From: Octopus vulgaris
Taxonomy: Eukaryota
Direction: 5' to 3'
Assembly (NCBI GenBank): GCA_951406725.2
Contig: OX597814.1
Coordinates: forward strand, 35,836,001 to 35,900,000
Length of the DNA: 64,000 nucleotides
Positions 4,632 to 30,989 of the stretch are shown one piece after another. The notes beneath the pieces were generated by a model, which saw nothing but the letters and a program-made list of their open reading frames with translations, made no database searches and was not told the origin of the DNA. Numbering within the stretch: the stretch's first letter is position 1; each line of letters starts with the position of its first letter. The position numbers were made by a program, and so were the translations under genes.

Positions 4632-5534
4632 TACAAGTGAGAATCAAAAATTATGTAATTTTGTTTTTTCAGTATATTTACACAAAAGGAGATAAAAAGT
4701 ATGCTATTTTTCTGTATAGTTTCCCATCTTTTCTGTGCACTTGGTCCAGTGGTCCACAAGCTTGCATATTCCCTCCAAGAAGAAGGTTTTTGTTTGGTTG
4801 TGCAACCAATTATGCACACTTCATTCACTTCTTCATCCATAGGAAAGCAACGACCTCGTAAACCATCTTTGATGGTTTGATGGTGAAATCTGGGCTGTAG
4901 GCAAGGTGTTTCAGCATCTCAAAACTCAATTGGTAAATGGCTTTAATGGTGTGAGCATTCATTGTGATGCAACAACAAAACATTCTTTGATAACAGGCTT
5001 CAGAATTTGTTGCGAATTGCTGGCTTCAGTTTGTTGGCCAGCAAAGCTCTGTTTCTTCAGTGTTGATTGTACACACCTTTTACAGCCAGTCTTACAGCAT
5101 GAGCCCTTTTGAGTCCCAAAATGGGTTAGTATCACCTTTCCCATGGAAGACTGAGTTTTGAATTTTTCCGTCGCTGGTGAGCCAGGACATTTCCACTCCA
5201 TACTCTGTCTTTTGGATTCTGCCTCATAATGATGGACCCACGTTTCATCTTCTGTGACTATCCTGCTCAAATATTCCTCACCCTCATTATTGTAATGACT
5301 GAATAAACATTGGCAGACCTCAAGACGTTTGTGCTTGTGCTCTGCAGTAAACTCTCTTGGCACCCATCTTGCACAGACTTTATGGCCACTGTAAAGCCAG
5401 AAAGAAAAATGGTATGATCAGGTTCAAAATTTGATCATGTGACCACAATAGCACTAACTATAAGCATGCATGTGCAGAAGGCAGTATGACAATAATAAAG
5501 ATATGTTATGGCAAAAGTGTGGATAACTTTCCTC

Positions 5535-27485: not shown

Positions 27486-27510
27486 CATGTTTATATATAT
27501 ATATATATAT

Positions 27511-28382
27511 GTGACTATTCTGTGGTACAGAAGTATTTTTTACTTCTATTTTAAGCGATGTAGGTGCTCATTTGGTGCCTTCACACACACATATATATAT
27601 ATATATTTCTTGTGCTGACCTAGCAGAGTTAAGACATTTTTAATGTTCACTGGAATTTTTTCCTACCATGCCTATAGTAGATTTGTGAATATTCTGTGGT
27701 ACAGAAGAATTTTTGACCTCTATTTTAAGCGATGTAAGTGCTTGAAACAATTGTAATGCATCACTAACTGATATCCTGTTGCTTAATTTGATTATATATT
27801 ATATATAAGTACATATCTTGCATTGTATGTATATATTTTATTAATTTGCTTGTATGGCTGTTAACTCACTTGCCACCGGTGATGGCATTTCAATAATACC
27901 ATCTCTTCTTATATTTATTTACAAATAATTTCATGAATTTTGTTTGTTTAAATAGTGTTTGGTCACTTTAAACAAAACTTTTGTAAGTATGGTGGGGGAA
28001 AATATTAGCAGTAGTAAGTTGGCAGACTTTGGCTGAAGAAAAAAAGGAACCTATTTGGTGCTAATTTTGAAATCAGTTCCAAGTTGACCGGTATTGGTTG
28101 TGCTGACCTAGCAGAGGTAACACGTTTTTAATGTTCACTGGAATTTTTTCCTACCATGTCTGTAGTAGATTTGTGACTATCCTATGTTACAGAAGTATTT
28201 TTGACTTCTATTTTAAGTGATGCAGGTGCTCATGTGGTGCCTTCCTGTATGTATATATATATATATATATATACAAGTACGTCTTGTATGTATATATTTT
28301 ATTAATATCAATAATTTGCCTGTACAGCTGAACTTGCTTGCCACACGTGATGGTATTTTAATAATACCATCCCTTCTTATAT
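27511..28382. repeat. Local segmental duplication (about 490-bp offset) with rearranged pieces
   Basis: TGTGCTGACCTAGCAGAG...TATTTTAAGCGATG at 27611 and 28099, with a third partial at 27511; TTGCCAC...ATAATACCATC at about 27870 and 28340. Confidence 0.85.
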
Positions 28383-28413
28383 ACATGCATACATACATAC
28401 ATACATACATACA

Positions 28414-28461
<48 letters not shown>

Positions 28462-28462
28462 A

Positions 28463-28983
28463 AATTGAATAAGGGTAGAAATTGATGTTAATCAATTAAA
28501 ACCAGTGGCCTAGCATATTAAAAAAATCCGAAGATTAAAATTTTTTATTACATACAAAATTTAAAGGACTGACCGCTAAAAGTGGACGGTCAATATGCTA
28601 GATATAGACGTCAAAATCGCTATTTTCCGCGAAGAATGTGTTCTCAAGAAAAAACTCAGCACAAAACCAAAGTGTAACAAATAAGTAAGACAAACGAAAA
28701 ATATACGAAATCAAAAACTATTACATATGTACCAATCAGTTTCACTTGTTAATATTCATGCATATGTATACACGAAAATCTGCAAGCTCATCAGCATAGT
28801 CTGGTAATCGCATAGGTAATCGTTTTTGATTTCGTATATTTTCATTTGTTTTACTTATTTGTTACACTTTGGTTTTGTGCTGAGTTTTTTTCTTGAGAAC
28901 ACATTCTTCATGGAAAATATCGATTTTAACGTCTATATCTAGCATATTGACCGTCCACTTTTAGTGGTCAGTCCTTTAAATTT

Positions 28984-28988
<5 letters not shown>
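28463..28988 (-). mobile_element. Hammerhead-bearing non-coding mini-element (Penelope pLTR/retrozyme-like) with about 180-bp inverted duplication, inserted in (TA)n
   Basis: 28551-28729 is the reverse complement of 28811-28988; the spacer contains a hammerhead core on the minus strand; flanked by (CATA)n/(TA)n. Confidence 0.75.
28724..28810 (-). ncRNA. Type I hammerhead ribozyme motif (minimal stem III)
   Basis: Minus: cgattaccagactatg-CUGAUGA-gcuug...caagu-GAAA-c ugauug-GUA-cauaug. Stem I uaug/caua plus auuac/guaau, stem II gcuug/caagu, intact core. Confidence 0.75.
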
Positions 28989-29030
<42 letters not shown>

Positions 29031-29220: not shown

Positions 29221-29410
29221 TACACATATGGCTCTATATGCATATATTTATATACATGTATGTGTGTGTGTGTGTGTGTGTGTGTATGAGAAGTATTGGT
29301 ATCCAGAAAACCCAAAATGGCAGATAAGGCTATGTAATGACTGTAGTTAGACTCTCGGTTCAATAATAATATGATCAAGGAGTTTAATGTGGGTCTTATG
29401 TTAGCATGTA

Positions 29411-29556
29411 TATGTAAAATAAAATGAGACAACACAGCCAAGGCAGTGTGAACTTTTTAAGGCATTTATAAAGAGAGAGGAAGTCTACCTTTTTCTTTGT
29501 AAATGTCCTAAAAATTTCATACTGCCTAGGCTTTGTTGTCTCATTTTATTTAACAT
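29411..29556. repeat. Imperfect inverted repeat (about 70-bp arms, very short spacer)
   Basis: ATGTAAAATAAAATGAGACAAC...AAAGAGAGAGG versus CCTTTTTCTTTGT...GTTGTCTCATTTTATTTAACAT. Confidence 0.85.
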
Positions 29557-29621
29557 ACACACACACACACACACATATATACTGTATATATATATATACA
29601 CATCTAAGGCAAACATTGGTT

Positions 29622-30029
29622 TACTCTTTTACTCTTTTACTTGCTTCAGTCATTTGACTGTGGCCATGCTGGAGCACTGCCTTTAGTCGAGCAAATCGAC
29701 CACAGGACTTATTCTTTGTAAGCCTAGTACTTATTCTATCGGTCACTTTTTGCCAAACCAAGTTACGGGGATGGAAACACACCAGCATCGGTTGTCAAGC
29801 GACGTTGGGGAGGGGGGCAAACAAAGACACACGAACATATACACACACATGCATATATATATATATACATATATAAGATGGACTTCTTTCAGTTTCCATC
29901 TACCAAATCCACTCACAAGGCTTTGGTCGGCCCGAGGCTATAGTAGAAGATACTTGCCCAAGGTGCCACGCAATGGGACTGAACCCAGAACCATGTGGTT
30001 CGTAAGCAAGCTACTTACCACACAGCCAT
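29622..30029 (-). mobile_element. SINE family A
   Basis: Near full-length copy. Confidence 0.9.
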
Positions 30030-30558: not shown

Positions 30559-30989
30559 CTCTTTCTCTTTCTCTTTCTCTTTACTTGTTTCAGTCATTTG
30601 ACTGCAGCCATGCTGGAGCACCGCCTTTAGTCAAGCAAATCGACCCCAGGACTTATTCTTTGTAAGCCCAGTACTTATTCTATCGGTCTCTTTTGCCGAA
30701 CCGCTAATTGACGGGGACGTAAACACACCAGCATCGGTTGTCAAGCAATGTTGGGTCAGGGGGTGCAAACACAACACACAAACATACACACACATATATA
30801 TATATATATACATATATACATATATACGACGGGCTTCTTTCAGTTTCCGTCTACCAAATCCACTCACAAGGCATTGGTCGGCCCGGGGCTATTGCAGAAG
30901 ACACTTGCCCAAGATGCCACGCAGTGGGACTGAACCCGGAACCATGTGGTTGGTTAGCAAGCTACTTACCACACAGCCACTCCTGCGCC
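30559..30989 (-). mobile_element. SINE family A
   Basis: Full-length, CpG-rich (young) copy. Confidence 0.9.

Follow-up and report, generated by a model that had tools for sequence, protein, structure and literature searches.

The genome of Octopus vulgaris carries, within the 64,000-nucleotide stretch analysed here (the window), an inverted duplication whose plus-strand arm starts at the first base after a predicted hammerhead cut on the minus strand. This coincidence raises the question whether the genome has preserved the end of a ribozyme-cleaved RNA, as the first-pass annotation of the window proposed, or whether the duplication starts there for another reason. In what follows, +1 is the base directly 3' of the predicted cut (window position 28729, minus strand), and family positions refer to the majority sequence of a 536-bp repeat unit derived from the fetched loci.

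The locus and its hammerhead motif

The insertion and its target comprise the following features:

28460 to 28803, minus strand: long arm (hammerhead, downstream region and tail), family -74 to +266, 95% match to the family majority sequence (L001 1499-1842)
28460 to 28551, minus strand: tail of about 90 bp, present in the long arm only; the same two end points are found family-wide
28811 to 28988, plus strand: short inverted arm, family +1 to +176, 96% match to the family majority sequence
28803 to 28810, plus strand: 8-nt junction duplication of family +5 to +12; the G at 28803 is common to the long arm
28441 to 28461, no strand: left part of the (TA)n target, from the sequence
28986 to 29022, no strand: right part of the (TA)n target, from the sequence

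The plus-strand arm starts, as first described, at 28811 with the counterpart of +1; its 178 bp take it to 28988, in (TA)n. It is 93% identical to the minus-strand arm. The right boundary originally given, 28988, is correct; the left one, 28551, is not, as the long arm extends 90 bp past it to 28460, and (TA)n flanks the insertion on both sides. The gap between the arms consists of 7-8 bases that copy +5 to +12, and the junction at +1 is without microhomology. Another parse of the junction takes the long arm to about -81, followed by one substitution, a 4-nt insertion and a short arm starting at +2 to +4; we ranked it lower because it needs more events. The locus is a single, ordinary head-to-head insertion of a small non-coding hammerhead repeat, probably mobilised by a Penelope-like element (PLE).

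The predicted ribozyme lies on the minus strand of the long arm:

28725 to 28799, minus strand: type I hammerhead motif, predicted from sequence, covariation across subfamilies and a constrained fold
28799 to 28795, minus strand: stem I, 5' strand
28794 to 28788, minus strand: CUGAUGA box
28787 to 28744, minus strand: stem II
28743 to 28740, minus strand: GAAA box
28739 to 28732, minus strand: palindromic stem III
28732 to 28730, minus strand: GUA, preceding the predicted cut
28729 to 28725, minus strand: stem I, 3' strand, changed at +5

The CUGANGA, GAAA and NUH boxes are all present in order at the locus, in the type I arrangement of PLEs, and the GUA triplet stands where the first-pass annotation had placed it. 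In the loci examined, 95 motif matches were found, which are copies from a few subfamilies and not independent events (two look spurious). The triplet is GUA in 78 of these 95; stem I occurs in three paired forms (59, 8 and 7 matches), the base of stem II in several, one common form containing a U-U pair, and stem III is fully self-complementary in 73, with at least four sequence forms. These compensatory changes across subfamilies support the predicted hammerhead. The assignment rests on motif and covariation, since Rfam gives no hammerhead match at the locus at E≤10; its matches there are microRNA models driven by the microsatellite and a weak chance match to a flavivirus UTR model. At loci L374, L376, L377 and L218, fold-back junctions have the stem III palindrome at their centre. 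Several other subfamilies or families have the +20 to +38 core in common and carry other stem III palindromes and triplets (GUC, AUA).

The locus copy itself departs from the family. The octamer CGATTACC at 28810-28803, previously read as a longer stem I, is the junction duplication and not family sequence: it is present in 1 of 71 copies, and most others read A(A/T)CGAC there. The family's predicted outer stem I, ACGA/UCGU, is lost in this copy. CATAGG, which had been taken for a variant, is what the family normally reads; it is the cut-side arm that has changed, at +5 and +11, and stem I is thereby shortened to 4 bp. If transcribed, the arms would form a long hairpin, in agreement with the original proposal (predicted fold -274 kcal/mol, z -36). 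Inside this hairpin the hammerhead fold is predicted to cost +10.9 kcal/mol, compared with +6.7 for the family majority sequence, suggesting that the locus copy is likely a poor ribozyme. The family ribozyme is likely functional as a dimer, with most templates left uncut or re-ligated at the site.

Other repeats lie nearby in the window. A second fold-back occupies 29407-29561, with 77-nt arms that are 84% complementary and separated by 1 nt. A degenerate direct duplication with a spacing of about 488 bp is found at 27504-28402, and one repeat, which we take to be SINE-like, occurs in two copies about 945 bp apart (29636-30028 and 30580-30979).

The repeat family and its two-armed layout

The family unit is 536 bp long, has a GC content of 33% and is non-coding. 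No ORF was found in the unit, whose longest stop-free stretch is 60 aa, and a tblastn comparison with 86 related proteins for an ORF combining reverse transcriptase (RT) and GIY-YIG gave a best E of 0.13. The family comprises about 1,500 arms; with no more than one mismatch allowed, 1,490 matches were counted for a 20-mer close to the short end. Most of the 149 distinct long ends run into a microsatellite (117), and 21 continue into a further unit; a single composite accounts for 6, and the remaining 5 end otherwise. Tandem units occur, as in L022. In the outer-end regions, +125 to +176 and +225 to +266, each end is preceded by a small predicted hairpin and closes with a similar T-rich motif, which finishes in TA and merges with the target.

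The outer ends of the arms are fixed, at +266 and +176, and their inner ends are scattered. For the short end we used the 100 listed of 124 arms that stop at +176 within (TA)n. Of these, 99 could be mapped, and 74 of the 99 face an opposing partner; breakpoints in this set of arms and partners are spread between -438 and +237. The loci L001-L192 contain 111 distinct head-to-head junctions: in 90 the two arms end at +176 and +266, none joins two ends of the same type, and the other 21 include an end that was not assigned. Loci not chosen by end type gave 29 short-long pairs of 42, with 0 homotypic and 13 not assigned. This rule fits two fixed priming sites, one for each DNA end.

The two arms of a pair come from one source, judging by their divergence: in the 58 pairs with enough overlap it is 3.6%, against 8.2% for shuffled pairs (minimum 7.0% in 300 shuffles). 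Their similarity could also stem from gene conversion after insertion. In 31 of 77 pairs it is the short arm that extends further 5' (in 27 it is the long arm), so neither arm is simply copied from the other. The arms of a pair break within 3 nt of each other in 10 of the 77, where shuffling gave a mean of 2.4 and a maximum of 9. At the 111 junctions we observed apparent microhomology in 48 cases, blunt joins in 9 and inserts in 54.

The layout thus consists of head-to-head arms from one source with fixed outer and scattered inner ends, placed in (TA)n targets and lacking an ORF. It has the features of Penelope-like insertions, namely an inverted, 5'-truncated neighbour head to head, a tail on one side (about 90 bp) and a microsatellite target. 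The family is a new one of a known kind. Searches of an open-access library turned up no strict arm-pairing count or breakpoint test at the cut; the supplements of PMC8557442, with their lists of families and hammerheads, may include the family.

No autonomous partner with shared sequence was found among the loci examined. One candidate, L285, in which an arm of 85% similarity precedes a PLE-like ORF, was rejected: only four composites, related to one another, show the join, and the ORF, of another family, has its own repeat end and hammerhead. These composites (L285-L288) are one arrangement of nested repeats with the same junction, on contigs C31, C4, C7 and C1, and three of the four copies lie within 250 kb of a contig end. 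The element at L285:2009-5540 (G000:C31:11781400-11784940) is a PLE with a broken frame, RT-like and GIY-YIG-like motifs and an asparagine-rich linker. Its ORF was assigned from motifs read by eye against section 11 of PMC8557442 and from one source name; neither this ORF nor three homologues had a significant Pfam match. Read in the same way, it shows the DKT, RW, CxxC and CxH marks of the Hydra clade. It has its own hammerhead with a palindromic stem III at 5379, and many of its copies have inverted arms.

Breakpoints around the predicted cut

If the start at +1 recorded ribozyme cleavage, breakpoints among other copies were expected by the first-pass annotation to peak at the base after GUA. 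We examined 409 arms genome-wide that contain exact +1 to +12 and +20 to +32 motifs. In this set 16 arms lack the A at -1, 16 lack the T at -2 and 377 have both, 30 of the 377 lacking the G at -3. Reading by eye, checked on the loci, left true breaks at +1 in 3 arms (this locus, L224 and L234), at -1 in 2 and at -2 in 5, the remainder being point changes, subfamily variants and internal deletions. Sequence past -2 is therefore present in 399 of 409 arms, and at most 10 break within -2 to +1. One further locus outside the set, L032, starts at +1 to +3. For comparison, head-to-head breaks numbered 2 at control position +5, counted in the first 100 of 146 arms, and 4 at control position +6, where all 49 were counted.

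A second, enriched sample drew breaks between -22 and +20 regardless of position, from 100 of 114 arms in one listing and all 76 in another. With the exclusion of arms that were intact, internally deleted, joined to flanking sequence or from other families, 65 head-to-head breaks remained, scored by eye. Eleven of the 65 fall within -4 to +3, which is the share expected of 7 out of 42 positions under a uniform distribution. The position +8 is a hotspot with 11 breaks; +1 has 1 certain break and 3 ambiguous ones. A peak at +1 is thus absent from the 409-arm set, from the comparison with control positions and from the 65-break sample. Hotspots lie at +8, at -13 and at +80 to +108, the first two being A-runs that match an A-rich partner arm.

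Breaks are about 2.8 times denser downstream of the cut, with 43 at +2 to +20 (19 positions) and 18 at -22 to -1 (22 positions). The upstream rate by itself would give 4.2 breaks within -2 to +1, fewer than the 10 observed (P 0.011); local or downstream rates predict 7.2-7.7 (P 0.19-0.25). There may be a local excess of about two-fold at the cut. The upper 95% bound is 2.1% of arms at +1 and 4.5% for -2 to +1. In the 99-locus set the break rate falls gradually, from about 1.2% per base at +71 to +110 to about 0.5% upstream of the cut. Any of several causes could produce the downstream excess: trimming of run-off products, stalled synthesis at stem I, the base composition or a survivor effect. 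Because other copies show no peak at +1, the start of the short arm at the predicted cut is likely chance. The proposal of a retro-element insertion, in which another copy was attached in inverted orientation, is supported; the proposal that the +1 start marks the end of a cleaved RNA, reached by reverse transcription, is not supported. Cleavage by the ribozyme is not demonstrated by this locus.

Origin of the insertion and comparison with known systems

We consider it reasonably probable, and well short of certain, that a Penelope-like enzyme acting in trans inserted the repeat into (TA)n, with one cDNA primed from each side of the break and a stop at +1 that was likely fortuitous. The steps that we infer for the enzyme, the priming and the joining are as follows. 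The enzyme would nick (TA)n, and each broken DNA end would prime at its own internal site, +266 or +176, on RNA from one source locus. Both cDNAs would halt early, at scattered points, and their 3' ends would be joined through microhomology and short templated stutters, which would amount to 8 nt at this locus. Stem I makes the two cDNAs complementary at +1 to +5 and -70 to -66 and may draw the join there without cleavage. At L368 the join runs exactly through stem I.

A second explanation starts from an RNA cut by its ribozyme: synthesis of the short cDNA would have continued to the 5'-OH end of this template and run off it, copying the final bases again in a stutter, and the product would then have been joined to the long cDNA. 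We regard this as unlikely and still worth serious attention. An exact, microhomology-free start at +1 followed by an 8-nt repeat is what a run-off end would give, there are at least three other certain or near-certain starts at +1 (L032, L224 and L234), and breaks are denser downstream. Six other junctions, all picked by eye, repeat bases from around +1 to +12: L289, and L367 and L370-L373, where the same 8-12 bases recur. An apparent enrichment of such repeats close to the cut, in 6 of 32 compared with 8 of 137 (P 0.028), was set aside as biased, because outside the hand-picked loci a near-cut repeat of at least 8 nt is found at this locus only. The missing peak relative to controls and the upper bounds at the cut also count against run-off, as does the rate of about 1.2% per base at +71 to +110. 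PMC11167929 reports no RNA-seq reads that start at a PLE cut site. Only a small fraction of templates could have been cut on this reading, and loss of bases in the joining step would spread the signal over +1 to +20. An equally tentative proposal has all two-armed insertions made by a dimeric Penelope enzyme, whose two active sites would take fixed and different start sites, 90 nt apart, on RNA of a single source; on the few templates that were cut, it would run off at +1 and re-copy the final 8-12 bases in a telomerase-like stutter. If it were true, the genome would hold a faint, countable record of germline hammerhead cleavage.

We think it improbable that the long cDNA instead folded back by pairing of its stem I counterpart and, after a single slip, served as its own template out to +176, so that the short arm would be second-strand DNA and +1 would be set by stem I pairing. 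The short arm is nested within the long arm at this locus, and the long arm ends 4 nt past stem I. The excess of pairs with closely spaced breaks and the join at L368 point the same way, and self-priming has been proposed for palindromic PLE junctions (PMC3846280, in the part consulted). Snap-back is however unable to yield the 31 pairs whose short arm outreaches the long arm, it needs a separate cause for the fixed end at +176, and its restart at +1 would have occurred without microhomology. A later rearrangement or an assembly artefact is very improbable: we saw no public contig covering all of the stretch, which is uninformative for repeats, but the arms differ at 9 of 170 sites and 90 loci have the same layout with the same outer ends.

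The preferred reading, insertion by a Penelope-like enzyme from two priming sites, can be set beside several known systems. In L1 twin priming, both ends of the target prime cDNA and the products join as an inversion. The two L1 segments do not overlap, whereas the arms of this family cover the same sequence.

Non-LTR retrozymes are described as tandem units of 150-450 bp (PMC7229834) and as PLE derivatives (bioRxiv 10.64898/2026.07.22.740005), in the parts of these sources available to us. Like them and other non-autonomous PLEs, the family has a non-coding tandem unit of low GC (33%, below the 50% mark) with a type I hammerhead in each unit. It differs in its 536-bp unit and in occurring mostly as dispersed, truncated, two-armed copies. 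The PLE hammerheads with a small palindromic helix III, as far as the accessible text of PMC4209133 describes them, share the core boxes, the long helix II, the 5-bp helix I and a self-complementary helix III that suits dimers; in comparison, this family has a helix III insert of 6-9 nt and a predicted outer stem I (ACGA/UCGU).

In vitro, Anolis Poseidon PAc uses two internal start sites and extends both strands, and the ribozyme is not needed (PMC11167929, in part). The AT-rich targets are a likeness to our family, and so, on the preferred reading, are the two internal start sites and the use of uncut RNA as main template. PAc is autonomous, and a pairing of one site with each DNA end is not reported in the available portion of that paper. 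The role of the hammerhead in PLEs and the origin of the inverted arms and the one-sided tail are open questions according to the sections of PMC8557442 at hand. The family provides figures for them: cDNAs that stop at the cut make up about 2-4% at most, the same end point never occurs at both DNA ends in 90 assignable pairs, and both arms have one source. The end rule and the breakpoint numbers constrain models, which can be tested in an existing in vitro system.

The closest likeness of layout is to PLE insertions, whose typical form includes an inverted copy truncated at its 5' end and a tail on one side (PMC8557442, Fig. 2, and PMC3846280, each in the part available). Going by the same parts, the head-to-head arm, one-end tail, partial tandems, 5' truncation, (TA)n targets and hammerhead in the repeat are shared. 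PLE tails there measure 30-40 bp; this family has a tail of about 90 bp and no ORF, and it is here that the short-long rule and the shared source of the arms have been counted.
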